NCBI GenBank assembly: GCA_016201865.1
Contig: JACQCA010000025.1
Location: 3,551-67,550 of the forward strand
Source: Nitrospirota bacterium
GTDB lineage: Bacteria; Nitrospirota; Nitrospiria; JACQBZ01
Direction: 5' to 3'
DNA length: 64,000 nucleotides
The position numbers and the translations under genes were made by a program. Within the stretch, counting starts at the first letter, position 1; the number at the start of each line of letters is the position of its first letter. The notes beneath the pieces were generated by a model that was not told where the DNA came from, searched no databases, and worked only from the letters and a program-made list of their open reading frames with translations. Positions 17,826-53,848 of the stretch are shown here, piece after piece.

Positions 17826-18965
17826 ATGGCATTAGAAGGCTCACTAAAGGATTTCGGTCTGGCCGATATTCTTCAATTGATCGGTCTCCAGAAAAAGACC
17901 GGGGTATTGACAATGAAGAATCCATCGACCGAGGCAAAGGTCCTGTTCGAAAACGGTTCCGTGGTTCTGGCGGACACGGCCCAACTTAAAGGGCTGGAGA
18001 AAATCGGCGAGGTTTTAGTTCGGGTCGGACTTATCTCTCAAGATCAACTCAAACAGGCTATTGCTAAACAGCGGTATAGTCACAAAAAAATAGGGATCAT
18101 TCTTGTCGAAATGGGGGCCCTTAAAAAGGAAGATCTGGTCAAGGCGCTTGGACTTCGCGTTAAAGAGACGGTCCTGAGCCTGTTTAAATGGAAAGAGGGC
18201 CGGTATCGTTTTGAGGCTTCCGAGGTCGAGTATGAGCGCGACTACTGTCCTCTCATGAACACCGAATTTATTATCATGGAGGGAGTCCGGCAATTGGATG
18301 AATGGCCGTATATCAAGAAAATCATTCCGAACCTCGATCTGATTTTCGGCAATAACAGCGACCATACGGAAAAGGCCGTACAGATCAAGGCTTCACAGGT
18401 GTCCGTCGACGATCTGAACGAGAAGATTCAAATCACGCAGGATGAGATGAGCGTTTACCGACTTGTGGACGGACAAAAAAATGTCCGAGACCTCATCGAA
18501 CTGAGCCAGTTGGGTGAATTTGAAACATGCAAGGCATTAAGCAGCCTGTTGACGGTCGGTCTGATTCTGCAGAAGCCCATTGCGGAAATGCCGATAACGG
18601 AACCGGAGAAGCCCATCGGTATGGAATTAAAGCGACTCCGGTTTACCGGTCAACTTATTTATAATGGATTGATTATCGCAGTATGCCTTATCCTGCTCGG
18701 TCTTGGCATTAAAAACATGACTTATGAAATCCCTGCAACCGTCTATTTAATAAAGCAATACCATGACCTGAGGGTTCAGAACCGGTTGATGCAGATCCGT
18801 TTCTCGATTGAGACTTACTATTATCGGAATAATCGGCTGCCGGAATCATTGGAAAAGCTTTTTCAAGAAGGTTATATTCACAACGGAGTCGGGGAGTTTT
18901 CTTATGAACCCCACCCTGACTCGTCTACGTTTGATCTTCAACTAAAGGCAAGACAGAATAACTAA
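17826..18965 (+). CDS. DUF4388-domain protein with a C-terminal TM helix and a pseudopilin-like tail
   Basis: N-terminus GSLKDFGLADILQLIGLQKKTGVLT (DUF4388/PATAN-type motif). TM LIYNGLIIAVCLILLGLGI. Lower GC than flanks. Confidence 0.6.
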   Translation: MALEGSLKDFGLADILQLIGLQKKTGVLTMKNPSTEAKVLFENGSVVLADTAQLKGLEKIGEVLVRVGLISQDQLKQAIAKQRYSHKKIGIILVEMGALKKEDLVKALGLRVKETVLSLFKWKEGRYRFEASEVEYERDYCPLMNTEFIIMEGVRQLDEWPYIKKIIPNLDLIFGNNSDHTEKAVQIKASQVSVDDLNEKIQITQDEMSVYRLVDGQKNVRDLIELSQLGEFETCKALSSLLTVGLILQKPIAEMPITEPEKPIGMELKRLRFTGQLIYNGLIIAVCLILLGLGIKNMTYEIPATVYLIKQYHDLRVQNRLMQIRFSIETYYYRNNRLPESLEKLFQEGYIHNGVGEFSYEPHPDSSTFDLQLKARQNN

Positions 18966-18994
18966 AAGTTTACATAATATTCATTATCAGACAC

Positions 18995-19597
18995 ATGCTT
19001 GAGGAAAAGGGGCCTGAAAGAATGAGGCAGGGTGACTTTGAAACATTCGGCCAATGGCTCTTAAACCGGATGGAAACCGTTCGGTTATCCCAAAATCAGT
19101 TCGCATCCTATTTGGGACATTCGGACGGTCTGTATGCAAAACGGCTCTGTAATGATGAAACGCGCCTCCAGATGAAGGACTGGCCGATCGTGGCAAAGCT
19201 TTTGCAATTAAGGCTCGATGAATTTTTAATCGTGCTTGAGTATTTTCATCCGAATTGGGTGATGGAATATGATGCATTTATTTCCAACTGTCTACGTTAT
19301 CTATTATGGCGTGTCGAACAGGACCAACAACACGATCTCCCCTTGCCGGAGTTTTTATTGACCGTCACGTTGGATGAAGTCATCGAACCGGCCTGCATCA
19401 GTCGATTCGATTCGACCGAGGATCAGCGGAAGATTGATCGAAGAACGACCCAAAGCGCTCCGGCAGAAGACAAGCGCGGGAAACCACGCCGGTTGACCGA
19501 TCTGGTCCGCTATCTTAAAAACCAACTCGGGGGTATTGCGCTGTTCCCCTTGTTCGCCTCCGGTTTATTCCTGATGCATGGATGGAGTCTTTCATGA
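18995..19597 (+). CDS. Hypothetical protein with an XRE-like HTH near the N-terminus
   Basis: FGQWLLNRMETVRLSQNQFASYLGHS helix-turn-helix-like segment. Start may be the internal MRQGDFE. Confidence 0.45.
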   Translation: MLEEKGPERMRQGDFETFGQWLLNRMETVRLSQNQFASYLGHSDGLYAKRLCNDETRLQMKDWPIVAKLLQLRLDEFLIVLEYFHPNWVMEYDAFISNCLRYLLWRVEQDQQHDLPLPEFLLTVTLDEVIEPACISRFDSTEDQRKIDRRTTQSAPAEDKRGKPRRLTDLVRYLKNQLGGIALFPLFASGLFLMHGWSLS

Positions 19598-20181
19598 AGT
19601 TCATGCAACCTTTCCGTCGAGAAATCGGCATCGTATGGGCGGGGCTTGAGAAAGTTGTCGTTTCGGCCGCCGAACAGACCACAAGGCAGGTTGAGATCGC
19701 TCGGTTGTCCTTTGGGATCCATGAATATGAACGTCAATTGGACAACATCTTCGAAAGGATGGGACGATTCTTATACGAGTGTCAAGCGAAAGAGATCAAT
19801 GCCGTTGCGGATGACTCGATCTGCCGATCGTCCCTTTCTGAATATAAACGTCTTCAGAACGAACTCAAGTTGATCGAACGCAGGCGGTATGATCTCAAGG
19901 AAGAGAATGTCGCCGCGCAATGGGCGGAATTCATCGAGTCGGTTCATCGAAGCGGCATGACTCTTGACTCTGTCATCCTCCCGTTTCATCTGAAACCTTC
20001 CACGATCACGTTGCAGGAACTCGCATTGCCTACGGGCATTCTCGTGATCGCGATCCAGCGGAAGGAACGATTCATTCAACCGCATGGAACGGTCATGCTC
20101 AATCGCGGCGACCGATTGACGTTGCTTGGTCCTCCGCAACAGATGATCCAGGTTATGGAGCGATTTTCATCAACGCGCTGA
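19582..20181 (+). CDS. Coiled-coil protein with a C-terminal TrkA-C (RCK_C) domain
   Basis: C-terminus LQELALPTGILVIAIQRKERFIQPHGTVMLNRGDRLTLLGPPQQM matches the TrkA-C fold. Overlaps the previous ORF by 16 nt. Confidence 0.5.
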   Translation: MESFMKFMQPFRREIGIVWAGLEKVVVSAAEQTTRQVEIARLSFGIHEYERQLDNIFERMGRFLYECQAKEINAVADDSICRSSLSEYKRLQNELKLIERRRYDLKEENVAAQWAEFIESVHRSGMTLDSVILPFHLKPSTITLQELALPTGILVIAIQRKERFIQPHGTVMLNRGDRLTLLGPPQQMIQVMERFSSTR

Positions 20182-20489
20182 TGGAGAAGCGCCATCGAGT
20201 TTCCACAATTCTTGTGGAAAAACTGTGGTTAACCCTGTGAATATACCCGATGAAGGCTTGATCCATGCGGGTTCGCACAGATTGCATAAAAATTGTGCAG
20301 TGAAACCGTCATGAAATTGAACGCTTCCGAATCTTCGCTTCGATTGTTTCAAATCGAATCATTTCGCCGCTTGTATTTTTATGGTGCATTTGATAAACTT
20401 ATACCATATATTGACGTTGTCCCGTTTATTGGGAAAACGCGCCGCATGTTTTGATGACGTCCTGTTTTATTACGATGAGGAGGAATCGT

Positions 20490-21878
20490 ATGCGTAGTTC
20501 AAAAATTTCAGCAGATCTTTTTATGATTCCGGTGATGATCGTCGCTGTGATGATCCTGTCGATCCCGGCTTCTTCGGCGCCGGTCGTCGCAAAAGACACC
20601 GCCGGAATGAAAGCGATCCAGGAACTGGAAAATATTTTTGTGGACATTGCGGATCGGGTCAAACCGGCCGTCGTCAATATCTCGCCGGCCACCCATCCCA
20701 CGGCGAAACCGGGTGAATCGCCCCGAGGGCGTCCCCCGGAATCGGGATCCGGTTCCGGTGTGATTATCGATAAGAAAGGATATATCGTCACTAACAATCA
20801 CGTAGTGGGCGAAGCCGCCGACGTGGAGGTGCGATTATCGGATAAAAGCCATTTCACCGGAAAGGTGATCGGTAAAGATCCGGATACCGATGTGGCCGTG
20901 GTCAAGGTCGAGACCGACCATGATCTCCCCTTCGTGACGCTCGGCGATTCCAGCTCGGTCAAGGTTGGGCAGTGGGTGATTGCGGTCGGAAATCCGTTCG
21001 GCCTGGACCGCACCGTGACGGTGGGGGTCGTCAGCGCACTGGGACGGGAAAATGTAAACCTTTCCCGATATGAGGATTTCATTCAGACCGACGCCTCGAT
21101 CAATCCCGGAAACAGCGGCGGTCCGCTCTTTAATCTGAACGGAGAAGCGATCGGGATCAACACCGCAATTATCAATTTCGCTCAGGGAATCGGATTCGCG
21201 ATTCCTTCCAACATGGTTCAGAACGTGGTCAATCAGTTAATCTCCAAAGGAAAGGTGGTCCGCGGTTGGTTGGGCGTGGGCATTCAACCGGTGACGGCCG
21301 ATCTGGCCTCCAAGTTCAATGTCAAAGAGGAAGAGGGTGTTCTGGTCAACGAGGTTTTTGAGGGCGATCCCGCCTCGAAGGCCGGGATGCAACCGGGCGA
21401 CATCATCATTAAACTGGAAGGGAAGACGGTCGACACCCCTCAAACCCTTTCGCGATTGATCGCATCGATCCCGCCCGGAAAGGATGCGGCGTTTGAAATC
21501 ATCCGGGACGGCAAACGCAAAAATCTAAGCGTGAAACTGGGCGAACGGAAGGAAGAGGCCGTGACGGCCTCGATTCCGAAGCAACCCGAAATGGTTTTAG
21601 GTCTAAGTATTCAGGATCTGACGCCGGAACTGGCCGACCGCTTGAAGCTCAAAGAGGAAAAAGGCGTCCTGGTGACCAAGGTCGAGCCCGGCAGCGCGGC
21701 CGATTCGGAGGGCATCAAGGAAGGCGATCTGATTAAAGAGGTCAACCGCAACAAGGTCGACAACTCCGACGATTTCAAGAACGCGATCGGAAGGATCAAG
21801 AAGGGCGAAAGCGTTCTGATCCGGATCATCCGTGAGAATCGCGCCTTCTACGTCGTGCTTAAAACGCAGTCTGAATAA
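20490..21878 (+). CDS. htrA: Periplasmic serine endoprotease DegP/HtrA family with two PDZ domains
   Basis: Signal peptide. Catalytic TNNHVV, D, GNSGGPL. Two PDZ domains. RBS GAGGAGG upstream of the ATG at 20490. Confidence 0.92.
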   Translation: MRSSKISADLFMIPVMIVAVMILSIPASSAPVVAKDTAGMKAIQELENIFVDIADRVKPAVVNISPATHPTAKPGESPRGRPPESGSGSGVIIDKKGYIVTNNHVVGEAADVEVRLSDKSHFTGKVIGKDPDTDVAVVKVETDHDLPFVTLGDSSSVKVGQWVIAVGNPFGLDRTVTVGVVSALGRENVNLSRYEDFIQTDASINPGNSGGPLFNLNGEAIGINTAIINFAQGIGFAIPSNMVQNVVNQLISKGKVVRGWLGVGIQPVTADLASKFNVKEEEGVLVNEVFEGDPASKAGMQPGDIIIKLEGKTVDTPQTLSRLIASIPPGKDAAFEIIRDGKRKNLSVKLGERKEEAVTASIPKQPEMVLGLSIQDLTPELADRLKLKEEKGVLVTKVEPGSAADSEGIKEGDLIKEVNRNKVDNSDDFKNAIGRIKKGESVLIRIIRENRAFYVVLKTQSE

Positions 21879-21990: not shown

Positions 21991-24060
21991 ATGAAACGGC
22001 TCCGGTTTGATGTCATCGTCATCGGCTGCGGACCCGCGGGCGCGACCGCCGCCGTGACACTGGCGCGTGCCGGTCTTTCCGTCCTTGTTTTAGAGGCCGG
22101 TGTGTACGCCGGCGCAGAGAACTGGTCCGGCTGCGTCTATTTCGCAGAAAACCTGGCCCGGCCCGACGCCTTCGGAGAAGAGGCCGTTTTAGCCGCTCCT
22201 TATGAACGCCGCTTGGTCCGCCGCGGAATCTTCCTTTATAATGGATTGGATCTCCTCGGACTTTCCTATCACAATTGGGACACCTTCCGGCATTGTTATA
22301 CCGTCCTCCGCCCGGTGTACGACCCTTACTGGGCCGGACTGGCCGAAAACCATGGGGCGATGGTTCTGCCGAAAACCACCGTGACCTCCCTGATCCGCCG
22401 GGGCGGCCGCGTGATCGGCGTCGAAACGGAACATGGACCGGTTTATGCCGAGGTGACCTTCATCGCCGAGGGCGACGCCTCGCATCTCATCCGTCGGGAA
22501 CGCCTGGAGCGCGTGAGCGCTCCGCATTTCATGCAAGGGGTCAAGGCCGTCCTGAACCTTCCGCCGTCGGTTATTGAAGAACGCTTTCGCCTTCTTCCCG
22601 GAGAAGGCTGCGCTTACGAATACCTGATCCGAAACGGCCGGATCGGCGGCCAGACGCTCCATCTGAACATCGGCGCTTTTCTGTACACCAACCGGAATTC
22701 CCTCTCGTTCGGATATGTCGTTCCGCTGGATAATTTAAAGGAAGCCTACCGCGGGGATCACGCGCGGCTTTTGGAATGGCTTCGCGGGCTCCCTCATTTT
22801 CGTTCGCTTCTTTCAGGATCCACGCTGTCGGCCTATGGCGCAAAGCTGATCCGGAGCGGCGGGTTGAAAGAACAGCCGATCTTGGTGGAGGACGGTCTGG
22901 CGGTGGGCGGCGCCGCAACCGGTCTTGGGATCGATCTCCCCTATCCAAACTTTACCGGTCCGGCCTCGGCCAGCGGCTTGATCTTCGCCCGCGCCGTCCG
23001 TCGCCTGCTCTCGGACGGACGACCGATCACGGCCGACCGGCTGCGTCAGGCCTATCTCGAACCGCTTCAGGCCGGCGTCTACGGACTCAACGCGGCCTTC
23101 TTGTCCGATTGGCCGGATTACTTGGAATCCAGCCGGACTCTTTTCGGCCGCTCGGTCGATCTGGCCTGCGGCTCGGTCCATTTTCTGACGCAGCCGAAGG
23201 CCCGTCTACGGCGAACGGCGCGTTTCCTCCGCGGACAGATGACGATCAAGGCCGCGCGCGAGCTTTTGAAAGACACGTTGCGTATGATGCGGGCATCGGG
23301 ACTTCGATCGGCGCTTTCCGGAAGTTTCCGTCTTTCCCTCATGGGTCGTTGGATTGCGAATCAGTTCAGGCCGGATCGAAAAACCGATTCCGGTTTCTCG
23401 ATCACGTTCCTATCGGCGGATGGAAATCCGGCCGAGATCCGAAATCTGCCCTGGCCGCTCCGAGGTCTGCTGGCCCGACTGTCTCCCGGACTGGCCGAAG
23501 GGATGAAAACCGTCTACGCCAATGACGGAAAGCCGATGTCCGAGAAATTTCGAGAAATGACCGAGGCCGTTCTACGGCGACTCAGACTCACGGACGGCAT
23601 TCTTCTCCCCGCCGTTATCCTTTATATCGTCGTCCTGGCCGCGGCCACGGCCTTGCTCGATTTTATTCGGTACTATTTTTTCCGTTGGCCGGTCGAAAAA
23701 GTTTTGGGCGGAGCGGTATCGGACTACCTCCAGGCGCAACAAACGGCGCAGGATCTGGATCAGGTCAAGACGGTCGATTCGTTCGAGACCAAGCTGGCGG
23801 CCAACTCCTATCACATCGGACGACGATCGCATATTCGCGTCCTCTGGCCTGCGGAACCGGCCCGTCACGGCGATTTGGCCCAGTCCCCGCTTTGGTCGGT
23901 CTGCCCGGCCCGGGTTTATCAATACGATCCGCCGTTGATCGGCCGCGGCATCGTGACGATCAATTACGAAAACTGCATCAAGTGTGAAACCTGCTGGCAT
24001 GCCGCGGACGATCCCGTGCGATGGGGACGGCACACCGATCACCGATTAATCTATCGGCCG
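21991..24060 (+). other. Domain module 1 of the giant CDS: ETF-QO/FixC-like FAD oxidoreductase, a hydrophobic membrane-anchor segment (23587-23679) and a FixX-like 4Fe-4S ferredoxin motif (23902-24000)
   Basis: GxGxxG Rossmann at residues 10-15. Helix LLPAVILYIVVLAAATALLDFIRYYFF. Cys at residues 638, 662, 665, 668. Confidence 0.75.
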
Positions 24061-27000
24061 GAATCGGACGCCTTGGACATTCTTATCGCCAAAGAGGCCT
24101 CATCGTCCCGGCCTCATCCGCCCCGAGAAAAATCATTCGGGACGTCGCCCCAAACTCTTTCAATTCTTCGAGAAGCGTTGCCCAAGGAAACGCTTGATGC
24201 GTTGTCCGAATCGGTCGCGTCCGCACTTCAGGCCGTCCGTGCGTTCGAGACCGCGGTGGACCATCTTCCGGCTTCGGCCGATGCAACCCGGCGTGAATGG
24301 CCGCGCAAGATCGGCGTGACGGCATTGCGGCGCATTGAAGATCTTGCCGTCCGGCTCTCCACCGGGGAGGTTCGTAAAATCTTTTCATCTCTTGAGATTC
24401 CGGCCGAGACGCTGACCGAATGGCTCCAGATTTTGGAGGACGACCGCAAGGATCTCGATCACCAACTTTCGATCGGCCAGGAATTCCATGCCCTCTCGGC
24501 CGCGCGCCGAATCCGCGAGGAGGTTCTGACGGATTTAAATGAGATCATGGGGCATCGAACAAGCCCGACGTCCCTCCCGCCGATTTCGGAAGATCGGTAT
24601 CGGACACCGCTCCATGACCGGATCTCGGCGCTGTTTCCGGACCGCATCGTCAAGACGTGGGAAGAGGCCCCGATTCCCCACGATGCCCGAGAACGCCTAC
24701 TGTTTCTGTTCATGGAGCAGGCCGAACGACCGCTTCCACTGATTCGAGCCCTTTCGTCCGTGAACCCCGCACTGGGACTGTTAGCGAGCCGACAGATGGA
24801 AGCGTCGGCGATTCTAAAACAGACCCATCAGCCCCTTCGTCCCGATCTATGCGCCGTGGACGGCGAGGGTCTTTCCATGATGGTCACGCCTCAGGGACTA
24901 AAAATGGACGGAGCGCTTGAACTCGTTCCCCTCGCTTTATCACGCATGTTGCTTCTGACCAAGCAAGATCAAGCATGGATCATCCCTCTCGATCAGGCCG
25001 GGCTCAAAACAATTTCCACACCGGCCATCGGGTTTCGTTCGGCCGGGTTTCACCGACTGGAATTCAACGGCGTCATGGTACCCGGCCCGGCCTTGCCGAC
25101 CGGCGATGCGCCGCGGCAGCGGGCGTCCGGCTACGCCGCCATCGCTCTCGGAGCGGCCGATTATCTAACGCGTCGCGCCAAGGAGCATGCCGAAGGCCGC
25201 GTCCAGTTCGGCCATCAGATGCGGGACACGCAAGGCCGAGACGGGATCGCAAAGCTCGGCGCTGTGAAGGCCATGATCGCACGGATCGAGGCCTGGCATC
25301 TCCTCCTCTCGGTCCTTCTTGATTCCTCCGAACCCCGGCCGGATCTTTATGCGACGATTGCGGCTATGGCCTTCGGTCCGGAGGCGGGACAGATGGGATA
25401 CGACGCCGGGCAGATCTTCGGCGGAATGGCCTATTCCGAGGACGACCTCCTATCCCGCGCCTATCGTGACAGCGCCCTTTTTCGATACCTTTTGCCCGGA
25501 TTCGGCGTCGCGAGCCGTCTGATGAATCGGCTTCAAGGAACGTCCGGCGCGCTTGAATCATTGGATGACGCAACAGCCCGGATCTTCAAGCGGGTTCAAA
25601 ACGGGCCGATGGCGGATGCGGCCGCGCGGTGGAAAGAAAATGCAAGGCGTTGGGAAGCGCTTGCTTCCACAAGCGATCCGGCTAAGGCCGGGGAAGCCGC
25701 CGCGTTGCTTTTAGGATCGCGTCTTGTTTTGTGCGACATTCAGGAACGACTCGAAGCGGGATACTCGGTCGAAGGAGATGCGGCCGCAAGCACCGTGCTG
25801 ATCGGCCTGGCAGAACAGTCGGCGGATGTGATGGATCTCCTTCGCCGCGATGCTCCCCGACCGCCGTTAGCGGTCTTTCCGGAGCGGCCGGATCGGGAAC
25901 GCGTGGATCTTCCGCTGCGCTATGAGGAGATCTGCAATCCCTCGTCCGATCGTCCGGCGCCGCCCTACTCGTCCGGCCGGTATTTGACCGAGGCCTTTGA
26001 TCCCGCGCCTCGTTTTGTCCCGGAGATTCAGATCCATGACCCGTCGCTTCGAAAACGATGGGAAGACTGCAGCGACTGGTTCATTAAAAATTTCTGGACC
26101 AAAAGCTTTGAGGGGATGCATGTCGAGCGTTACGTCGAAAAGATTCACGGCATTCCCAAGGGCGTCCTCTACGGTTTTAAAGAAAACGGTTACTTTTCGA
26201 CGATCATCCCTCAAGAATTAGACGGCGGTGATTGGTGGAAGGCCGAATATTATATCCTGACCGCCGCGGCCGGTCGCTTCGGCGATGCGGGTCTGCTTTT
26301 AGTGATCATGGCCAGCACAAGCATCGGGACGACGCCGATGCTGTTGGGTCTGTATAAAGAGCTTCCGCTCGCGGCGGAGGAACTCGAACCCTTGGCCCAC
26401 GATCCACGACAGCTCGGCGAGATCGGCGGCCGCTTGAACGCCTTGATCGCCGGATTGAAACGTCCGGACCCCGGCCGAATCAAGAAGGACTTCACGGATT
26501 TGATGTCTCTGGTGGATTCGCGCATCCGTCATACCCGGGTCGTAAAATATCTTGCGGCCAACTTCCTCAAGGTTTTTTACGCCGCCGGAATCGCCGGGCA
26601 ACGACGGGATCTGGACGGCTTCGCACGAGGCCTGAAGGAGGCCCAGACCCTTTTCGATCACCTGAACCCGACGATCGGCGAGGCCCTGGCCGAGCTCCCG
26701 CGACGCGAGCGGGCCCATCAATTTTTCTTAAAAAAACTTGGGCATGGCGGAATCAGCGCCTTCGCGCTGACCGAACCGACGGCCGGCTCCGACACCGGCG
26801 GCGTGAAGACCTCGGCCCGGCCGATGAGCCGTCTGCTGACTCCTCTTGAGGATGGACGCTGTCGTTTCAGCTTAACGGAAGGCAAAACTCCCGACGACAA
26901 GTCAGCGCGGTATCTAATCGACGCCGACCGGATTCGGTTCGAGGCCAGACCGGGTTCACCTGTCATGGCGTACGAACTCTCTTCCGGCGAGGTCGTTCCG

Positions 27001-30000
27001 ATCTGCTGTGATGAATACAATTATGACACGGACGAGGGCCTGCGGTATTACCTCTTTGAAAATAAAAAGCGATGCTTTCATGATATCGCGCAAATCCGTA
27101 ACCGTGAAGGAAAACCGGTTTATGACTATTACGAACTGACCGGCGCAAAGATGTGGATTACAAACGGGCATGTGGCGACGCAATTTTGCTTATATGCGCA
27201 ATCCCCGGAGGGCGTGACGGGTTTCATCGTGGATCGTCATGCCGAGGGCCTAAAGGTCGGCGCCGATGAGCGGAAAATGGGGCAACGCGGCTCCCCAACC
27301 AACGAGATCGCGATCGACCAGGTCCGCGTCCCAAAGGAATGCATCATCGGCTACGAAGGCCACGGCCAGGTGAATGCACTTGAGACCTTGAATGTCGGCC
27401 GCTGCGGCCTGGCCGTCGCCTCGATTACGTTGATGCGGAAACTCTTGATCGAGGCGATCGAACAGGTTCCGGCTTCGCGAGAACGGGATGATCGTCTCTG
27501 CGAAGCGGCGGCCATTCTGTTCGGATCCGACTCGATGACATTTCACCTCATCGGCCTGTTTGACCGGCAGACGACCGAATCGGTCCGAATGGAATCGGCA
27601 ATCGCCAAGTACGCCTGTTCGGAAGACCTACACGAACTCACCGCCCTCGTCGAGCAGGCCTACGGTCCGGCCGGGACGACCGAACGGTATCGCGTCGAGA
27701 AGATCCGGCGGGATTCCCGGATTCTCAATATCTACGAAGGAACCAACGAGGTCCAACGTTTCCTGATCTTAAAAGACCTCGTCGCGATGGTGAAGGAATG
27801 GAAGCCGCTCCCGATTCCGGAGGGTTCGGATGCCGAGTCGCGTCTGGCCTTCTGGAAAGAAAGGCTTCGGGACCATGTGAAGACGGCCTCGGACCTTTTA
27901 GGCGACACGGTCTGGATGGACGCGATCCTTCAGCCGACCTACTTCCCGCTGGCCGATATGGCCGGTGAAATCTTCCGTCTGGATTGTTTGACCTACCGGA
28001 TCCGATGGCTCAAAGAAAACCGCGAACGGCTGGGGCCGGATTATACCGATCCCCTCCTCGCCGTGGGTGAGAGAGCCGTCCGGCGATGCGAACACCGCCT
28101 CTCGGCGCTTGACCGACGGTATCACCGAAATGCGGAGCGATCCGTCAGGGGCCTCTACGCATCGGAAGCGGTTGCGGCGGACGCGGCTCTGGAACGGATC
28201 GGGAGGAAGGCTCCGGACGATTCACCGCCCTTTGTCGGACTGAAACGTCCTTTGAATATCCTCTGCCTTCTCCGCCTGACGGCCGAGGTCGCTCCGATCC
28301 CTCGACTCCATGAAGGACGGCTTTCGGAAATCGTCTGGCGGTTCAACCCGACGGATGAGGCCGCGGTCCGTTCGGCTGTCCGATTAAAAGAGATCAGCCG
28401 TTCAGACGTGACGGTTCATCTCGTCATGCCCGGGGAACAGGATAAGGAACGTCATCTTCGATGGGCGCTCGGCAGCGGCGCGGATGCCGTCTACCGGATC
28501 AACGCCCCGGTGACGGCCGACGGACCGGTTTTTGTCGAGGCGATTTCCGAACTTGAAAAATCCGGGAAGTACGACCTGATCCTGACCGGCTCATTTTCGG
28601 AAGACGGCGGGGAACCGCTCGGGCCGTTCGTGGCCGGGGCCGTATCGCGTTTTTTTGCGAGGACTTCTTCAATCGAGGTCGTCAATGACGGGCTTGAACT
28701 CGCCGTAGGAACCGGTCCAAGTCGGTCAAGCCTGCAACTCCTGCCGAAAGAGCCGGTCGTTCTGGCCTGGGAGCGGACCGCGGCGCCGCTTCCGGTCGAG
28801 ATGAACCGATTGATCGAGGGGCAGTTGGCCCGCATCGAACGCCTGTCGGTTCGGGAGAAGATCGTTTCCGATCGGTGGGTTCCCGCTCGAGCCGTCGTCA
28901 GAAAAAGCAAAACGATCCGTGAACTGGCCGGTGTGGCCGATCATCTCAAAACCTATCTGGCCGAAGCTCGCGCGATGAAGGCCGAACCTTATTCATCAAA
29001 GATCATCGAGATGCCGCTTCCGGCCGGGCCGGCGGTCTGGACGGTGATCGAAGCGCTTCAGCCCAAGGCGATTCCGGCCCTCGTTGGCGCGGCAAGTTTC
29101 TTGGGTCGGTCGCTGGATCAAGAAAGTTATGCCGTTGTGCTGGGATCGGAGAAAACCTGGCCCCAGCTTGTGGGTCTGGCACGGGCCCGCGGACTGACCG
29201 GGGCGGTTTGTGTCCCAACTCCCGACGGTCCATTAACCGAATCGGGACGGCTGGAATGGCTCAAAAAATTTGCGGGTCTTGCCCACGACCTTCGGATTGT
29301 ATGCGGTCCAGGCTGGGCCGATGCCCTTTCCTATCAGTCGGGCCGACTCAACGGAAAACGATCCATGCTTTTCACCGACGTGATCGAAATAGACCGGCGT
29401 GAAGGGCTTCTGCTTTACAAGTCGGCCTATCACGGAAAATTACGACGTTCCATCACTCTGACACCGTCCCAGACACCGATGGCGTTCATGACGGTCTCCC
29501 CGACCGCGGATTTCCAGTCGGGCGGACCTTCGTCCCGTTTCACGGCCGCGACAGCCGACAATAAAATACTGGCCGTCCATCCCGACTGGTTCGAGTCAAC
29601 GCCTCCGGTTGCGCAGGATGACTTGACCTCGGCCGAGGTGATTATTGATGTCGGATACGGTGTTCGGAATCAGGAAGGGTTCAGCCTGACGGTTCAACTT
29701 AAAGAGACGCTTGAGCGAATGGGTCTGACGGTCCATCTGGGGGCCACCCGAAAGGTAACGCAGGATCTGAAACTTCTTCCGCTCGATCATCAAATCGGCC
29801 AGACCGGCGTGCGAGTGAACCCGAAACTGATCCTGGCGCTCGGAATTTCCGGCGCGCCGCAGCATATGGACTACATCGGCGACCGCGCCGTGATTTTCGC
29901 CTTCAACAAAGATCCCGAGGCCCCGTTGATGAAATTCAACGAGACCCGTCCGGCCCCGATCATCCACCCCATCGTGGGCGATCTGTTCGAGACGATTCCG

Positions 30001-30027
30001 AAATTAATTACGATGCTGTCTGCGTGA
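21991..30027 (+). CDS. Giant 2,678-aa multidomain flavoprotein. N-terminal ETF:quinone oxidoreductase/FixC-FixX-like module, then a degenerate ACAD-like module, a canonical acyl-CoA dehydrogenase, an EtfB-like module and an EtfA-like module, all in one reading frame
   Basis: Continuous 8,037-nt ORF with recognisable family motifs along its whole length: VIVIGCGPAGATAA (FAD); CPARVYQY...NCIKCETCWH (4Fe-4S); ALTEPTAGSDTGGVKTSA, GAKMWITNG, IYEGTNEVQRFLI (ACAD); NPTDEAAVRSAVRLKE (EtfB); LGISGAPQHMDYIGDRAVIFAFNKDPEAPLMKF...IVGDLFETIPKL (EtfA FAD signature). Confidence 0.9.
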   Translation: MKRLRFDVIVIGCGPAGATAAVTLARAGLSVLVLEAGVYAGAENWSGCVYFAENLARPDAFGEEAVLAAPYERRLVRRGIFLYNGLDLLGLSYHNWDTFRHCYTVLRPVYDPYWAGLAENHGAMVLPKTTVTSLIRRGGRVIGVETEHGPVYAEVTFIAEGDASHLIRRERLERVSAPHFMQGVKAVLNLPPSVIEERFRLLPGEGCAYEYLIRNGRIGGQTLHLNIGAFLYTNRNSLSFGYVVPLDNLKEAYRGDHARLLEWLRGLPHFRSLLSGSTLSAYGAKLIRSGGLKEQPILVEDGLAVGGAATGLGIDLPYPNFTGPASASGLIFARAVRRLLSDGRPITADRLRQAYLEPLQAGVYGLNAAFLSDWPDYLESSRTLFGRSVDLACGSVHFLTQPKARLRRTARFLRGQMTIKAARELLKDTLRMMRASGLRSALSGSFRLSLMGRWIANQFRPDRKTDSGFSITFLSADGNPAEIRNLPWPLRGLLARLSPGLAEGMKTVYANDGKPMSEKFREMTEAVLRRLRLTDGILLPAVILYIVVLAAATALLDFIRYYFFRWPVEKVLGGAVSDYLQAQQTAQDLDQVKTVDSFETKLAANSYHIGRRSHIRVLWPAEPARHGDLAQSPLWSVCPARVYQYDPPLIGRGIVTINYENCIKCETCWHAADDPVRWGRHTDHRLIYRPESDALDILIAKEASSSRPHPPREKSFGTSPQTLSILREALPKETLDALSESVASALQAVRAFETAVDHLPASADATRREWPRKIGVTALRRIEDLAVRLSTGEVRKIFSSLEIPAETLTEWLQILEDDRKDLDHQLSIGQEFHALSAARRIREEVLTDLNEIMGHRTSPTSLPPISEDRYRTPLHDRISALFPDRIVKTWEEAPIPHDARERLLFLFMEQAERPLPLIRALSSVNPALGLLASRQMEASAILKQTHQPLRPDLCAVDGEGLSMMVTPQGLKMDGALELVPLALSRMLLLTKQDQAWIIPLDQAGLKTISTPAIGFRSAGFHRLEFNGVMVPGPALPTGDAPRQRASGYAAIALGAADYLTRRAKEHAEGRVQFGHQMRDTQGRDGIAKLGAVKAMIARIEAWHLLLSVLLDSSEPRPDLYATIAAMAFGPEAGQMGYDAGQIFGGMAYSEDDLLSRAYRDSALFRYLLPGFGVASRLMNRLQGTSGALESLDDATARIFKRVQNGPMADAAARWKENARRWEALASTSDPAKAGEAAALLLGSRLVLCDIQERLEAGYSVEGDAAASTVLIGLAEQSADVMDLLRRDAPRPPLAVFPERPDRERVDLPLRYEEICNPSSDRPAPPYSSGRYLTEAFDPAPRFVPEIQIHDPSLRKRWEDCSDWFIKNFWTKSFEGMHVERYVEKIHGIPKGVLYGFKENGYFSTIIPQELDGGDWWKAEYYILTAAAGRFGDAGLLLVIMASTSIGTTPMLLGLYKELPLAAEELEPLAHDPRQLGEIGGRLNALIAGLKRPDPGRIKKDFTDLMSLVDSRIRHTRVVKYLAANFLKVFYAAGIAGQRRDLDGFARGLKEAQTLFDHLNPTIGEALAELPRRERAHQFFLKKLGHGGISAFALTEPTAGSDTGGVKTSARPMSRLLTPLEDGRCRFSLTEGKTPDDKSARYLIDADRIRFEARPGSPVMAYELSSGEVVPICCDEYNYDTDEGLRYYLFENKKRCFHDIAQIRNREGKPVYDYYELTGAKMWITNGHVATQFCLYAQSPEGVTGFIVDRHAEGLKVGADERKMGQRGSPTNEIAIDQVRVPKECIIGYEGHGQVNALETLNVGRCGLAVASITLMRKLLIEAIEQVPASRERDDRLCEAAAILFGSDSMTFHLIGLFDRQTTESVRMESAIAKYACSEDLHELTALVEQAYGPAGTTERYRVEKIRRDSRILNIYEGTNEVQRFLILKDLVAMVKEWKPLPIPEGSDAESRLAFWKERLRDHVKTASDLLGDTVWMDAILQPTYFPLADMAGEIFRLDCLTYRIRWLKENRERLGPDYTDPLLAVGERAVRRCEHRLSALDRRYHRNAERSVRGLYASEAVAADAALERIGRKAPDDSPPFVGLKRPLNILCLLRLTAEVAPIPRLHEGRLSEIVWRFNPTDEAAVRSAVRLKEISRSDVTVHLVMPGEQDKERHLRWALGSGADAVYRINAPVTADGPVFVEAISELEKSGKYDLILTGSFSEDGGEPLGPFVAGAVSRFFARTSSIEVVNDGLELAVGTGPSRSSLQLLPKEPVVLAWERTAAPLPVEMNRLIEGQLARIERLSVREKIVSDRWVPARAVVRKSKTIRELAGVADHLKTYLAEARAMKAEPYSSKIIEMPLPAGPAVWTVIEALQPKAIPALVGAASFLGRSLDQESYAVVLGSEKTWPQLVGLARARGLTGAVCVPTPDGPLTESGRLEWLKKFAGLAHDLRIVCGPGWADALSYQSGRLNGKRSMLFTDVIEIDRREGLLLYKSAYHGKLRRSITLTPSQTPMAFMTVSPTADFQSGGPSSRFTAATADNKILAVHPDWFESTPPVAQDDLTSAEVIIDVGYGVRNQEGFSLTVQLKETLERMGLTVHLGATRKVTQDLKLLPLDHQIGQTGVRVNPKLILALGISGAPQHMDYIGDRAVIFAFNKDPEAPLMKFNETRPAPIIHPIVGDLFETIPKLITMLSA
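24655..25500 (+). other. Domain module 2: degenerate acyl-CoA-dehydrogenase-like fold lacking the YEGT catalytic signature
   Basis: ACAD-like C-terminal helix region GQIFGGMAYSEDDLLSRAYRDSALFRYLLPG, where canonical ACADs have ...IYEGT.. Confidence 0.55.
26090..27790 (+). other. Domain module 3: canonical acyl-CoA dehydrogenase with the catalytic YEG Glu retained
   Basis: ISAFALTEPTAGSDTGGVKT, GAKMWITNG, GQRGSPTNEIAIDQVRVP, ILNIYEGTNEVQRF. Confidence 0.85.
28240..28850 (+). other. Domain module 4: electron-transfer flavoprotein beta-subunit-like (EtfB/FixA-like)
   Basis: VWRFNPTDEAAVRSAVRLKE...GADAVYRI...DLILTGSFSEDGGEPLGPFVAG. Confidence 0.7.
28990..30024 (+). other. Domain module 5: electron-transfer flavoprotein alpha-subunit-like (EtfA/FixB-like) including the FAD-binding C-terminal domain
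   Basis: QIGQTGVRVNPKLILALGISGAPQHMDYIGDRAVIFAFNKDPEAPLMKF...PIVGDLFETIPKL. Confidence 0.85.
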
Positions 30028-35170: not shown

Positions 35171-36094
35171 TCAGCGTTTCCTGGGTTTGCGAATCTTCTC
35201 TTTTTTCAGTACGCTCTTGACGGCTTCGCCGATCACGGCCGGGTTTCGGACGACTTTCACACCGGCCTCTTCAAGCGTTGCGATTTTCTGTGCCGCCGTT
35301 CCCTTGCCGCCCGAGATGATCGCGCCGGCATGGCCCATCCGCCGGCCGGGCGGAGCCGTTACCCCGGCGATGAAACCGACGACCGGTTTCGTGACATGGG
35401 ACTTGATATAATCGGCTGCGCGTTCCTCGGCATCCCCCCCGATCTCGCCGATCATCACGATCGCCTCGGTGTTCCTGTCTTTCTGAAACAGTTCAAGAAC
35501 GTCCGTGAAATTCGTCCCGTTTACCGGGTCGCCGCCGATCCCGATGCAGGTGGACTGCCCAAGACTGAGCTCGGTCAACTGCCAGACCGCTTCATAGGTC
35601 AGCGTGCCGCTGCGGGAGACGACCCCCACCGAACCTTTTTTATGGATGAAGCCCGGCATGATCCCGATCTTGCATTCCTCCGGGGTAATGATCCCGGGAC
35701 AGTTGGGACCGATCAGACGGATCGTGCGTTTCCCGTTGTCTGAGGCCGTTTTTCCGGCGATGAACCGTTTTGCGCGGATCATATCGGCCAACGGGATTCC
35801 CTCGGTGATGCAGACGATCAGGCCGATTCCGGCATCGGCCGCCTCCATGATCGCGTCGGCTGCAAACGCCGGCGGCACAAAGATCATCGAGACATCGGGC
35901 TTCACGGCCTCCACGGCCTCCGATACCGTGTTGAAGACCGGAACCCCTTCAAACGCGGTTCCCCCTTTTCCGGGAGTCACACCGCCGACGATCTTCGTCC
36001 CGTACTCGCGGCAGGCCGCGGCATGGAACGATCCTTCCTTGCCCGTGATTCCCTGGACGACGACTTTGGTATTTTTGTTGACGAGGATGCTCAT
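35171..36094 (-). CDS. sucD: Succinyl-CoA synthetase alpha subunit with an unusual Lys-rich C-terminal tail ([11 protein letters not shown])
   Basis: [24 protein letters not shown]..., CoA-binding and phosphohistidine loop (SGTLTYE). Confidence 0.95.
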
Positions 36095-36096
36095 GC

Positions 36097-37281
36097 CTAT
36101 CCCTTTTTCGTTTTCTCTGCCTGCTTAATCCCCATCTGAACGACGCCGCCCCGCTGTCCGACCCAGACATTCCGTTCGGAATCGACCGTGACGGCATAAA
36201 CATCGTCGCCGATCAGACCGTCCGCCTTTGTATAGCTCTTCCAGGCCGTTCCATTAAAGCTCGACACGCCGTGATTGGTTCCGACCCAGATCAGCCCTGA
36301 CGGATCGCGTTCCAAGGCATAGACGACATTCCCGGATAATCCCTGTTGGGTGGTGTAGTTCGTCCAGCGCTTCCCGTCGAAGCGGCTGACGCCGCCGCCC
36401 CAGGTGCCGAACCATTTATCGCCGCGGGCATCGATCATGATCGTGAAAATATAATTTTCGTTGTAGGTCTCTTTTCCTTTATCATCCAAAACACTCAGGT
36501 CATGGAAGTGGCCGGCGTAACTCCGCCCCGGCGCTAATTCTACACCGGGATTCTCCTGCAGGGCCTCATACGCTTCTCCCGACGTCTTTTTTCGGGCGAG
36601 GGCCAATTCGTTGGGAGCCCCCAGACCGTCCTTATGGGTATAGGCGGCCCACTGTTTTCCGGCCGGAGCCGCAGGATCAAACCGATTCACGCCCTCCTCG
36701 GTGCCGAACCAAAGCGACCGGTCGCGATCCACCGCCAGACCGTAGACCCATTTATTCACGAGTCCGTCTTTGGTGTTGTACGTCGCGAATCGGGATCCTT
36801 CGGGAGCGGACGGATCGTATCGGGTCACGCCGTCCCACGTCGCGATCCACATGCCGCCGTCGGGATGAAAATCAATGTCGTACACCCATAAATCGGACAG
36901 CCCGTCCTGTTTGCCGAAAGCCGTCCAGGCGGCTCCGTCAAAACGGAGCAGACCGCCGGCATCCGTTCCAAACCACAATCCTCCTTTTGCATCCTTATTA
37001 ATCGTGAAGACGTAGTTGCTCGTCAAACCGTCGTTTTTGGTATAGGTCCGGACGAGCCCGCCGTTGACGCGATTGACCTTGATGATTCCGGTAGACGTTC
37101 CGACCCATAAAAAAGCGCCGTCCGACTTCAGCGCGCGAACCACATTGCCCGGACCCGTGTTGAAACTCGCCATGACCTTGTAGTCCGGCATGGGCGGACT
37201 TTTTTGGGCGCAGCCCCAGAAAAGTAAAAGGCTGCTCAGGATAACGACGATCGGTCGGCGCGGTTGTCGGCGGGTTGACAT
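36097..37281 (-). CDS. Lipoprotein built of two-component-regulator-propeller (Reg_prop) repeats, inserted between sucC and sucD
   Basis: Lipobox LLLFWGC. At least 6 repeats of the type [15 protein letters not shown] / [18 protein letters not shown] overlaps the sucC TGA (TGATG). Stop is 2 nt before the sucD ATG. Confidence 0.8.
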
Positions 37282-38444
37282 CAGGATTGAATGAGGCTGA
37301 CGATCTTCTGGGCCCCCTCCCACATCGTCCGCGCCACGATAAGGTTCAGTCCGGATTCGGCGAGCATCTGCCGCGCCTCCTCGGCGTTCGTCCCTTCCAG
37401 CCGCACAACCAGCGGAACCTTGATGGCGACCTCTTTTGCGGCATCCATTACGCCGCCAGCGATCCGCTCGCATCGGACGATCCCGCCGAAGATATTGATG
37501 AAGACTCCCTTGACATTCCGGTCCGACATCAGAATCGTGAAGGCCTGCTTCACGGTTTCCTTCGAGGCGCCGCCCCCCACATCGAGGAAGTTGGCCGGGA
37601 AGGAACCGGCGAGCTTGATCGTGTCCATGGTGGCCATCGCCAGGCCGGCCCCGTTCACCATGCAGCCGATGGCCCCATCGAGTTTGACGTAGTTCAGACC
37701 GTATTGCGAAGCCTGAATCTCGAGAGGGTCTTCCTCGTCAAGATCGCGGAGCGCCTTGATGTCGTCATTCCGGTAAAGCGAATTATCGTCAAAGGTCACC
37801 TTGGCGTCCAATGCGATCAACTTTTGATCTCGGGTGACAACGAGCGGATTGATTTCGACCACGGAAGCGCCCTTTTCCATGAAGAGACGATAGAGGTTTC
37901 CCAACATAAGGACGAAGAGGCCGATGATCTCTTTTGCGAGCCCCAGGCGATAGGCCAGCATCCGTCCGTGAAAGGCCTGATAGCCGGCGGACGGATCGAT
38001 CAGGGCTTTGAGAATTTTCTCGGGCGAATGGGCCGCGACTTCTTCAATCTCCATGCCGCCCGCACGGCTCGCGATGAAGACGGGCCAGCCCGAAAACCGG
38101 TCTACGAGGAGGCTCACGTACAGTTCGCTCGCGATATCCGCGCCCTCTTCAATCAAAAGACGCTTCAACTTGCGTCCTTCCGGGCCGGTCTGATGGGTAA
38201 CGAGGACCTTTCCCAGAAGCTCCTTCGCCAGCGTTTCGACCTGCGCGCGCTCCTTGGTCAGCTTGACGCCGCCGGCCTTCCCCCGTCCGCCGGCATGAAT
38301 CTGGGCCTTTACCACATAGACGGAGGATTGAAGCTGGTCGGCCCAAGCTTTCGTCTCCTCGACTGTGGCGACGGCCTTCCCGCGTGGCACGGGGATATTA
38401 AACTGAGTAAAGAGCTGCTTGGCCTGGAATTCGTGGATGTTCAT
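37281..38444 (-). CDS. sucC: Succinyl-CoA synthetase beta subunit (ATP-grasp)
   Basis: MNIHEFQAKQLFTQFNIPVPRG... 387 aa. Confidence 0.95.
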   Translation of the reverse strand: MNIHEFQAKQLFTQFNIPVPRGKAVATVEETKAWADQLQSSVYVVKAQIHAGGRGKAGGVKLTKERAQVETLAKELLGKVLVTHQTGPEGRKLKRLLIEEGADIASELYVSLLVDRFSGWPVFIASRAGGMEIEEVAAHSPEKILKALIDPSAGYQAFHGRMLAYRLGLAKEIIGLFVLMLGNLYRLFMEKGASVVEINPLVVTRDQKLIALDAKVTFDDNSLYRNDDIKALRDLDEEDPLEIQASQYGLNYVKLDGAIGCMVNGAGLAMATMDTIKLAGSFPANFLDVGGGASKETVKQAFTILMSDRNVKGVFINIFGGIVRCERIAGGVMDAAKEVAIKVPLVVRLEGTNAEEARQMLAESGLNLIVARTMWEGAQKIVSLIQS

Positions 38445-45978: not shown

Positions 45979-47592
45979 TTATTGTTTCGCCGCCGCGGCG
46001 GGCATGATTTCGGCGCGGCGGACGTAATCGGGAAGGATGATCGGTGCGATCCGTTTCGGCTTGATTCCGTTCTTCTCCAGTTCCTTCTGGAACCGGGTCA
46101 CATGGGACAGCGTCAGCTTTCCGGCTGGAACCGATTTCGCACGCTGGGCGGCCGCGGCGCCCGCCCGCTTTCCGAAAACGATTAAATCCAGAAGCGAATT
46201 TCCCATCAAGCGGTTCCGGCCGTGCAGCCCGCCGGATGCTTCTCCGGCGACGAACAGCCCCTGGGTCTGGGACTGCCCGTCCGTATCAATCGCCACGCCG
46301 CCGTTCTGGTAATGAAGCGTAGGATAGATCAGCACCGGCTCTTTTCGAATATCAATCCCGTACCGCTCAAACTGCCGGACCATCGCCGGGAAGCGCTTTG
46401 TGATGTTTCCCTCGCCCAATAGTAGATCGATCATCGGAATGTCGAGCCAGACCCCGACCCGTCCGGCCGGCGTCTTCACACCCCGGCCCTCGGCGCATTC
46501 ACGTATGATCGACGCGGCCACGACGTCGCGTGTATCGAGTTCGTTAACGAACCGCTTGCCGTTCCGGTTGACGAGATGTCCGCCGTCGGAGCGGATGCCT
46601 TCGGTCACGAGCGCGCCGGCCAGCTGTTCCGGAAAAACGGCCCCGGTGGGATGGTACTGAAAGGTGTCGGCATGGGCCAGCTTCGCGCCGGTGCGATAGG
46701 CCAGAACCAGCGCGTCGCCGGTCGCGCCATAGTGATTGCTCGTGGGAAAACCCTCGATATGAAGCCGTCCGGAGCCGCCCGTCGCCAGGATGACCGACTT
46801 GGCTTCGACCACGATGAACTGGTCGTTGTCCATATTTTTGAGCACCGCGCCGGAGCATCGCCCGTCCGGATCGGTCAGCAGCTCCACCACGGGTGAGAAC
46901 TCCAGGATCGGGATCCGTTGGTTTAAGACCTCGTCCTTAAGCACACGCATGATCTCAAGGCCGGTATAATCGCTGCAGGTGAGAAGCCGCGGCTTTGTGC
47001 TACCGCCGCCTTTCTTCGTCTTGAGGTTTCCGCTCTCGTCCCGGTCGAACAGAACCCCGAGCCCGATCAGCCACTGCGCGGCCTTCGGGCCCTCTTCCAC
47101 CAGGACCTTGAGAAGCTTTGGATCGTTCTTGAGATGTCCGCCTCGAAGCGTGTCGAAGAAATGGGTCACGGGCGAATCATCCTCGGTGATCGCGACCTGC
47201 ATCCCGCCCTGGGCCATGACCGTATTGGAATCGCCCATTCGCAGCTTGGTCACGAGCAGAACGTCCGCTCCAAGCGCCTTGGCCGTCAGCGCGGCCGTCG
47301 CCCCCGCCCCGCCCCCGCCGACCACCAGCACATCCACACGGTACTGCGGCGTAAGATCGAGATCTGCCGGAACGGGACTGTCCGATTCCAGAAGCTCGGC
47401 CACCTCCCGCACGGTTCGTTCGCCCGCGTTGGGACCGGTCTGGATTTTGTGATACTCTTCTTTTTTATAATCGGGATGGAATGCGCGGACCAGCCGGTCC
47501 CGTTCCTCCGGCGACTGGATCGGAACGGTCTGCTTGCGACGTTCGTCGCGTTCGTGGATGACCTTGCTTTTTGATTCGGCGATGACGTCCAT
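45979..47592 (-). CDS. FAD-dependent fumarate reductase/succinate dehydrogenase flavoprotein-like protein with a ~95-aa N-terminal extension
   Basis: VDVLVVGGGGAGATAAL (Rossmann). His/Arg capping-domain motifs (HYQNGG..., FVAGEASGGLHGRNRLMGNSLLD). Confidence 0.8.
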   Translation of the reverse strand: MDVIAESKSKVIHERDERRKQTVPIQSPEERDRLVRAFHPDYKKEEYHKIQTGPNAGERTVREVAELLESDSPVPADLDLTPQYRVDVLVVGGGGAGATAALTAKALGADVLLVTKLRMGDSNTVMAQGGMQVAITEDDSPVTHFFDTLRGGHLKNDPKLLKVLVEEGPKAAQWLIGLGVLFDRDESGNLKTKKGGGSTKPRLLTCSDYTGLEIMRVLKDEVLNQRIPILEFSPVVELLTDPDGRCSGAVLKNMDNDQFIVVEAKSVILATGGSGRLHIEGFPTSNHYGATGDALVLAYRTGAKLAHADTFQYHPTGAVFPEQLAGALVTEGIRSDGGHLVNRNGKRFVNELDTRDVVAASIIRECAEGRGVKTPAGRVGVWLDIPMIDLLLGEGNITKRFPAMVRQFERYGIDIRKEPVLIYPTLHYQNGGVAIDTDGQSQTQGLFVAGEASGGLHGRNRLMGNSLLDLIVFGKRAGAAAAQRAKSVPAGKLTLSHVTRFQKELEKNGIKPKRIAPIILPDYVRRAEIMPAAAAKQ

Positions 47593-47604
47593 AGGCGAGC
47601 TTTC

Positions 47605-48312: not shown

Positions 48313-48321
48313 TCCTTCCGA

Positions 48322-50568: not shown

Positions 50569-50641
50569 GGAAGGCTCCCTTCCTCATTATCGTCTGGAAA
50601 TTTCATTCTAACGGGCCGCCGCAGCGATAGTCAACGGATAT

Positions 50642-53748: not shown

Positions 53749-53817
53749 TTAATGCCTCCTGTCCCTTCAAATTCTCATGGTTTCGGCATTGATGAACGTC
53801 TCAGAAAAGGAAGGGAT

Positions 53818-53846: not shown

Positions 53847-53848
53847 CA

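Follow-up and report, generated by a model that had tools for sequence, protein, structure and literature searches.

The 64,000-nucleotide stretch of DNA analysed here (the window) comes from a Nitrospirota bacterium (GenBank assembly GCA_016201865.1, contig JACQCA010000025.1, positions 3,551 to 67,550, forward strand) and carries a giant open reading frame (ORF) for a single protein of 2,678 amino acids. Pfam, NCBIfam and PDB sequence searches give the domain order along this chain as FixC-like, FixX-like 4Fe-4S, acyl-CoA dehydrogenase (ACAD) copy 1, ACAD copy 2, EtfB-like and EtfA-like, the last two being related to the small and large subunits of electron transfer flavoprotein (ETF). We propose that the two ACAD folds pair obligately as an asymmetric pseudo-heterodimer with one flavin adenine dinucleotide (FAD) and one active site within this FixCX/ETF-fused chain, a reading to which we assign a probability of about 0.7. 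The tandem of ACAD folds had been noticed in an initial annotation of the sequence, and both folds do lie inside the one ORF, as do the two strings it quoted, GQIFGGMAYSEDDLLSRAYRDSALFRYLLPG (beginning at residue 1140, nucleotide 25408) and IYEGTNEVQRF (beginning at residue 1914, nucleotide 27730). The interval it gave, 24655–27790, corresponds to residues 889–1934 of the uninterrupted frame but opens too late, copy 1 starting upstream of it: its ACAD N-domain helices have begun by residue ~873, and the helical region of the model reaches back to ~735 (nucleotide ~24193).

The second copy is recognizable as an ACAD from its sequence. Its matches to Pfam Acyl-CoA_dh_M (61.9 bits) and Acyl-CoA_dh_1 (68.9 bits) exceed the cut-offs, while Acyl-CoA_dh_N reaches 19.1 bits against a cut-off of 22.9 because an insertion of ~115 residues interrupts the N-domain. 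The closest solved relatives are CarC (E = 1.8e-34), VLCAD and Clostridium difficile Bcd, and the best NCBIfam ACAD model is of the Bacillus FadE type. An alignment was made of the window protein and 31 relatives of full length (28–48% identical; 2,219–2,894 amino acids; three divergent ones showed the same Pfam order), and a column was scored as conserved at 90% or more. As the initial annotation had claimed, copy 2 has the full catalytic motif set, including IYEGTNEVQRF; TEPxxGSD, WITNG and YEGT are all present and near-invariant among these 32 giants (F1591, L1593, T1594, E1595, P1596, G1599, S1600 and D1601; K1720, M1721, W1722, T1724 and N1725; Y1915, E1916, G1917, T1918, N1919, Q1922 and R1923). 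The IYEGT of copy 2 aligned with the IYEGT of CarC and the FEGT of VLCAD, which puts E1916 in the catalytic Glu column. A three-piece HMMER alignment against solved ACADs located two insertions in this copy, a helical one in the N-domain at ~1455–1570 (26353–26700) and another in the beta domain at ~1612–1710 (26824–27120), between VKTSARP and YDYYELTGAKMWITNG. Conservation of both insertions extends to the near relatives of the window protein, and both were modelled with low confidence.

Copy 1 is far more divergent. Pfam Acyl-CoA_dh_1 (PF00441) matched residues ~1048–1165 with 29.9 bits (cut-off 22.4, E = 7e-7), the Pfam search gave no match for its N or middle domain, and phmmer against the PDB found 37 solved ACAD sequences at E ≤ 10, the best with E = 1e-5. 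Because this sequence evidence reached only the C-terminal domain, we modelled residues 735–1290 with AlphaFold2 from an alignment of 50 family members. The model scored a predicted local distance difference test (pLDDT) of 92.9 and a predicted TM-score (pTM) of 0.92, and DSSP assigned to it the N-domain helices (~873–945), a seven-strand beta domain (953–1030) and a C-terminal helical bundle (1040–1181). Foldseek returned 292 PDB matches at E ≤ 1e-3, and the best 50 were all of the ACAD fold. Ordinary ACADs of ~380 residues superposed with TM-scores of 0.58–0.64 and root-mean-square deviations of 4–5 Å; ACAD9, VLCAD and EpxF aligned over 532–561 of the 556 columns of the model. The helical extension that follows copy 1 is comparable to the extra C-terminal helical domain of VLCAD and ACAD9. 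Copy 1 is thus predicted to be a complete ACAD fold of the long VLCAD/ACAD9 type, and this fold rules out a mere helical linker at the same place. Upstream of its N-domain, residues ~735–872 (24193–24606) were modelled confidently as five long helices whose sequence is poorly conserved; they may be part of the ACAD N-domain or a distinct bundle that connects to FixX.

The fold of copy 1 is present, and its catalytic and flavin-ring residues have not been retained. In HMMER alignments to solved ACADs, the sequence LLPGF stands in place of I/F-Y-E-G-T, so that L1168/P1169 occupy the catalytic Glu column of F/YEGT. That column is variable in the 32 giants, in agreement with the initial annotation, which had described the first module as lacking the YEGT context. 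Glu occurs there in only one of them, P0068 (2,632 amino acids), which reads LLWEGVR at the column of window residue 1169; this Glu-Gly, reminiscent of YEG, stands alone in the set. Where TEPxxGSD and WITNG would be expected, copy 1 reads AVDGEG and ELVPLA, and both stretches are variable and gap-rich across the family.

What copy 1 has kept is best read against an ordinary ACAD. In the cryo-electron microscopy structure of human SCAD, FAD lies at the dimer interface and Glu392 is the catalytic base (PMC13027082). One monomer binds the isoalloxazine ring through F152, L154, S155 and T187 and the ribityl-pyrophosphate through G160, S161, T364 and E396, and the adjacent monomer also contributes FAD contacts, namely R297, Q365 and G369 (PMC13027082). 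When these positions were mapped onto the giant, F152, L154, S155, T187, G160 and S161 fell on residues kept in copy 2, all except T187 in the ALTEPTAGSD region, and R297, Q365 and G369 fell on R1070, Q1141 and G1145 of copy 1. The stretch GQIFGGMAYSEDD of copy 1, which includes the last two, aligns to the QxxGGxGY of solved ACADs. Copy 1 has 17 near-invariant columns, among them R1070, Q1072 and F1073 as well as Q1141, G1144, G1145, S1149, E1150, D1152, R1159 and D1160, and its two most conserved stretches, RVQF and GQxFGGxAYSEDD...RD, are the ones that contain R1070, Q1141 and G1145. In the separate alignment of 50 sequences, R1070, Q1072 and F1073 were strictly invariant. By contrast, only 3% of the beta-domain columns are conserved in copy 1, as against 35% in copy 2. 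The reverse loss is seen in copy 2, where the equivalent of R-x-QFG is unconserved and QxxGG is down to a single conserved Gly.

Judged by these columns, each copy appears to keep the residues that its partner requires for a single shared FAD site and to have lost those that a second site would need. Such complementary degeneracy is what an obligate pair of one inactive and one active copy with one FAD predicts, and its recurrence across the 32 giants argues for that arrangement. The proposal of the initial annotation that a fused inactive-plus-active pair forms an obligate pseudo-heterodimer is therefore supported as far as fold and conserved residues go, and the asymmetry goes further than had been suggested, the degeneracy being complementary in both copies. 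In the mechanism that we propose, copy 2 would bind the flavin ring and acyl-CoA and carry the catalytic Glu1916. Copy 1 would be a pseudo-enzyme whose R1070, Q1141 and G1145 hold the ADP-ribose end of the copy 2 FAD across the interface, and it would also supply the partner surface that any ACAD needs for folding and cofactor retention.

The same conservation pattern bears on other roles for copy 1. In some ACADs, such as IVD and LCAD, the catalytic Glu is carried elsewhere, on helix G. It is Glu291 in LCAD (PMC10925408). Copy 1 could by analogy be an active dehydrogenase with a non-canonical base and its own FAD, giving two active sites per chain. We found, however, no conserved Glu at the start of its helix G, residues ~1040–1046 being variable; moreover, the partner-directed FAD residues that a copy 1 FAD would require from copy 2 are unconserved. 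Together with the missing TEPxxGSD and WITNG equivalents, these motifs rule out an alternative-base enzyme for practical purposes, and we consider it very improbable. At the other extreme, the loss of all catalytic motifs and the poorly conserved beta domain might suggest a functionless relic, decaying after a duplication or fusion. This reading is hardly credible, as it is contradicted by the retention of copy 1 at the same position in 32/32 giants, whose named members span three phyla, with invariant motifs and a confidently predicted fold.

Copy 1 could instead act as a scaffold, or as a platform on which a partner such as the tethered ETF or the FixCX head docks, with its conserved motifs kept for folding or for a different ligand. 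It is placed between the FixX module and copy 2, and neither the helical region 735–872 nor the extension of copy 1 has an assigned role. In known ACAD:ETF complexes, moreover, ETF docks on the ACAD N-domains. The strongest conservation in copy 1, however, falls on exactly the three partner-FAD contacts and their surrounding motifs, and conservation in the N-domain and extension is among the lowest (mean consensus fraction 0.29–0.41). We therefore regard a scaffold as improbable and favor a FAD-holding pseudo-enzyme.

The best solved relative of the FixC-like part, by phmmer against the PDB, is 7koe_C, the FixC of Thermotoga maritima EtfABCX (E = 8.7e-32), and the ETF:quinone oxidoreductase (ETF-QO) 2gmh follows with E = 8.7e-9; it also matched FixC-type subfamilies of NCBIfam with E-values from 1e-44 to 1e-49, under their full-length cut-offs. 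The FixX-like part matched Fer4_ETF_QO weakly (16–19 bits, below the cut-off of 24). Its cysteines, Cys637 in VCPARVY followed by Cys662-x2-Cys665-x2-Cys668, form a CPA...CxxCxxC pattern that is invariant in 32/32 giants. Between the two parts, residues 531–560 are the hydrophobicity peak of the protein, with a Kyte–Doolittle 19-residue mean of up to 2.66 (at most 1.67 elsewhere), and about half of the 32 giants have a comparable stretch at the matching position. From its composition, this helix may be a membrane anchor. It seems more likely to be monotopic or re-entrant than membrane-spanning, because a single spanning helix would separate FixC and FixX across the membrane.

At the other end of the chain, the EtfB-like region matched Pfam ETF with 44 bits (residues 2116–2216) and 5ow0_B in the PDB with E = 2.7e-6. 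The EtfA-like region matched Pfam ETF_alpha with 67.6 bits and the human and Paracoccus ETF alpha subunits with E ~1e-17, and its R...QxGQTG...GxSGAxQH...NxDxxAP motifs aligned with those of the two subunits. In the EtfA FAD domain, 23% of the columns are near-invariant among the 32 giants, and the EtfB-like region and EtfA domain I (28252–29610) have no near-invariant columns in the same set. This ETF base may have lost its nucleotide site, for AMP or a second FAD, altogether. In T. maritima EtfABCX, the bifurcating FAD is marked by RxGV and GxxSPTxV in the small subunit and by RPxFGG in the large subunit (PMC10734219). These three motifs have no conserved counterparts in the 32 giants (the window protein reads, for example, KSAYHGK), a provisional result given the low quality of the alignment there. 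Because the bifurcating-FAD motifs are unconserved, the ETF part probably works like the non-bifurcating, mitochondrial-type chain and unlike EtfABCX.

Taken together, the modules suggest that the giant is most likely a self-contained, membrane-associated acyl-CoA:quinone oxidoreductase. Electrons would pass from acyl-CoA to the copy 2 FAD, the ETF FAD, the FixX 4Fe-4S cluster, the FixC FAD and finally quinone, with the FixC-like domain as the presumed quinone-reducing end; the fusion would fix the ACAD, ETF and ETF-QO-like modules at 1:1:1, and the single active site would be positioned for the tethered ETF. We infer this direction of electron flow, as well as the acyl-CoA substrate and the absence of bifurcation, from module identity and motifs. 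A stronger version, which we put forward tentatively and at somewhat less than even odds, is that the giants of 2,200–2,900 residues are monomeric, membrane-anchored single-chain "respiratory wires" with a complete path from acyl-CoA to quinone, in which the ACAD dimer became asymmetric specifically to match a single active site to a single tethered ETF.

Several points weigh against the shared-FAD pair and the pathway built on it. The non-bifurcating assignment depends on poorly aligned regions, and there are no beta-oxidation genes near the giant gene in the window, hence no fatty-acyl clue to the substrate. When the profiles of the two copies were compared by hhalign, E was no better than 0.13, with a correct register from where the beta domain ends into the C domain; the copies can barely be aligned, too poorly to establish a common origin by duplication. 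In a model of both copies (residues 881–2080, 1,200 residues; pLDDT 74.4, pTM 0.70), the beta domain and insertions of copy 2 were poorly predicted, with pLDDT below 50 at model residues 838–917. The closeness of R1070, Q1141 and G1145 to the copy 2 FAD pocket, and with it the canonical dimer geometry and the number of FADs, is something that we infer.

Finally, intrachain and interchain pairing would leave the identical sequence signature, so that cis and trans cannot be told apart by it. The same asymmetric pairing could thus occur between chains, with copy 1 of one giant facing copy 2 of a second. The result would be a domain-swapped homodimer that has two active sites and corresponds to an alpha2beta2 heterotetramer. 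Three features speak for pairing within the chain. The linker (residues 1288–1343, ~55 residues) is long enough for it. The two-copy model of the single chain reached a pTM of 0.70, and since copy 2 with its extension accounts for only 737 of 1,200 residues, among them most of those modelled with low confidence, the definition of pTM suggests that the mutual arrangement of the copies was predicted with confidence. The best Foldseek matches of this model were VLCAD, ACAD9 and bacterial long ACADs (2z1q, 3owa), and the VLCAD and ACAD9 chains, of 550–590 amino acids, agree with the second extension at 1935–2080. In VLCAD the helical extension occupies the face through which other ACADs form tetramers. 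Because both copies carry a VLCAD-type extension, the pair probably stands alone as a "dimer", without tetramer assembly. On balance, we judge pairing between chains to be unlikely and prefer the intrachain pseudo-heterodimer. The features on which these readings rest are collected in Table 1.

Table 1 Features of the giant ORF in the window
Feature	Residues	Nucleotides	Strand	Evidence or remark
Giant ORF, 2,678 amino acids		21991–30027	+	ORF list and translation; Pfam/NCBIfam domain matches
FixC/EtfC-like FAD-dependent oxidoreductase	3–334	21997–22992	+	phmmer against PDB, NCBIfam
Hydrophobic helix between FixC-like and FixX-like parts	531–560	23581–23670	+	Kyte–Doolittle
FixX/ETF-QO-type 4Fe-4S domain	631–668	23881–23994	+	Pfam Fer4_ETF_QO, Cys pattern
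ACAD copy 1 (upstream boundary approximate)	~735–1181	24193–25533	+	AlphaFold2, Foldseek, Pfam
Copy 1 GRVQF	1069–1073	25195–25209	+	R1070 at position of human SCAD R297
Copy 1 GQIFGGMAYSEDD	1140–1152	25408–25446	+	Q1141 and G1145 at positions of SCAD Q365 and G369
Copy 1 L1168-P1169, position of missing catalytic Glu	1168–1169	25492–25497	+	Aligned by HMMER with 3nf4 and VLCAD
Helical extension after copy 1	1193–1287	25567–25851	+	Four long helices, pLDDT >90
ACAD copy 2 (two family-specific insertions)	1344–1934	26020–27792	+	Pfam, PDB, Foldseek
Copy 2 ALTEPTAGSD	1592–1601	26764–26793	+	Same-subunit flavin-ring, ribityl and substrate contacts
Copy 2 KMWITNG	1720–1726	27148–27168	+	Flavin-ring contact; T1724 at position of SCAD T187
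Copy 2 IYEGTNEVQRF	1914–1924	27730–27762	+	Glu1916 at catalytic base position
VLCAD-type helical extension after copy 2	1935–2080	27793–28230	+	Long helices, pLDDT 80–95
EtfB-like (small ETF subunit) region, divergent	~2088–2330	28252–28980	+	Pfam ETF, PDB
EtfA-like (large ETF subunit) region; FAD-binding domain 2544–2626	~2340–2678	29008–30024	+	Pfam, PDB

The extent of the family became apparent when 1.84 billion cluster representatives were scanned in full with HMMER, module 1 and the linker being the query. The scan returned 108 proteins at E ≤ 1e-3, of which ~40 were 2,200–2,900 residues long, and the match always lay near residues 850–1350. A first homology search had found eight relatives, all fragmentary. 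Module 1 seemed to stand alone in protein databases because frameshift errors evidently split the giant gene: the apparently stand-alone proteins P0004 and P0007 were rejected as such, being parts of assemblies that contain frameshifts and keep the order of genes. At the loci L001 and L002 (metagenome contigs of the ENA assemblies ERZ25039545 and ERZ25039477), the orthologous giant gene was called as 3–8 short genes with garbled ends. The named giants come from metagenome-assembled genomes of Nitrospirota, Planctomycetota and Armatimonadota, and their current annotation is only "acyl-CoA dehydrogenase family protein", which conceals their architecture.

A 2,705-amino-acid orthologue is encoded at locus L004 of a Nitrospirota metagenome-assembled genome. 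Four similar ORFs precede the giant gene in the window (17826–21878) and at L004 (3313–7401), L004 having been compared by ORF size and order only. In the window they encode a DUF4388 protein, an unassigned protein of 200 amino acids, a protein with a TrkA_C domain and a protease of the HtrA type that has two PDZ domains, none with an obvious link to acyl-CoA metabolism. The downstream neighbour is a DUF5069 gene, and the rest of the window holds housekeeping and reductive tricarboxylic acid (TCA) cycle genes. The (reductive) TCA genes lie on the minus strand at 35171–38444 and 45979–57742 and encode two succinyl-CoA synthetase subunits, a flavoprotein of the fumarate-reductase/succinate-dehydrogenase type, aconitase and a monomeric isocitrate dehydrogenase; two ATP-citrate lyase subunits are encoded at 50642–53748 on the same strand. 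This gene set fits a Nitrospirota genome with CO2 fixation by the reductive TCA cycle.

Literature searches within the paper library used found no paper describing the full FixC-FixX-ACAD-ACAD-EtfB-EtfA fusion, and the all-in-one megaprotein appears to be undescribed. The interest lies mainly in this architecture. Until now, asymmetric ACAD pairs, in which one partner is catalytic and the other holds FAD, have been peculiar to bacteria that degrade steroids. The same solution in VLCAD-like units of uncultured Nitrospirota, Planctomycetota and Armatimonadota, probably reached independently, would show a general evolutionary route for the ACAD fold. The giant would also suit the study of how the flavin domain of ETF shuttles between donor and acceptor. 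If the single-chain wire is real, a single particle could show the whole ACAD:ETF:ETF-QO electron-transfer cycle together with the swinging flavin domain of the ETF.

Among known electron-transfer systems, the giant shares its module set with the chain of ACAD, ETF and ETF-QO and with T. maritima EtfABCX/FixABCX, and differs from both in having all modules in one chain. A single-chain ETF is known from Sulfolobus acidocaldarius; it is bifurcating and has EtfB fused to EtfA (PMC12042025). The giant has the same EtfB-then-EtfA order, but its ETF is fused downstream of an ACAD pair and a FixCX-like module.

As to the ACAD units themselves, both copies find their best structural matches in VLCAD, ACAD9 and bacterial FadE-type long ACADs, and the likeness extends to the additional helical domain at the C-terminus. 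These enzymes, however, work as symmetric homodimers in which each subunit has an active site and a FAD, whereas the giant has a covalently linked pseudo-enzyme partner. The division of labour would instead be that of the alpha2beta2 ACADs, in which the alpha subunit binds the isoalloxazine and the substrate and carries the Glu, and the beta subunit contacts the ADP-ribose (PMC10925408). The alpha2beta2 steroid enzymes have one FAD per pair (PMC10925408, PMC8399759). Judging from its motifs, the giant would divide the work between partners as do ChsE4-ChsE5/FadE26-27, ChsE1-ChsE2/FadE28-29 and IpdE1-IpdE2, yet ChsE4-ChsE5, ChsE1-ChsE2 and IpdE1-IpdE2 are encoded by separate genes, and their separate chains form heterotetramers. 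Steroid-pathway ACAD chains (ChsE, FadE26-29, IpdE) were absent from the 37 PDB matches of copy 1 at E ≤ 10 and from the best 60 of the 75 matches of copy 2. Because no steroid-enzyme subunit is found among these solved matches and both copies are VLCAD-like, the likeness to the steroid enzymes is probably convergent.

The initial annotation had likened the tandem to alpha2beta2 ACADs compressed into one polypeptide. The complementary motif pattern bears out the likeness, while the single-chain form is not new in principle. In CasC, a bile-acid side-chain ACAD of Rhodococcus jostii RHA1, two ACAD domains are described as fused; FAD binding depends on the N-terminal domain, and the catalytic Glu is confined to the C-terminal domain (PMC8399759). 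The giant resembles CasC, as described, in having two ACAD domains on one polypeptide in the same order, with the base only in the C-terminal one. It differs in that CasC works by itself in the steroid catabolism of an actinobacterium, whereas the pair described here sits in a FixC-FixX-...-EtfB-EtfA chain, and its copies are VLCAD/ACAD9-like with helical extensions, copy 2 carrying two large insertions. By its motifs, the tandem would thus be an asymmetric ACAD of the CasC/alpha2beta2 type, here built from VLCAD-like units and tethered to its electron acceptors.

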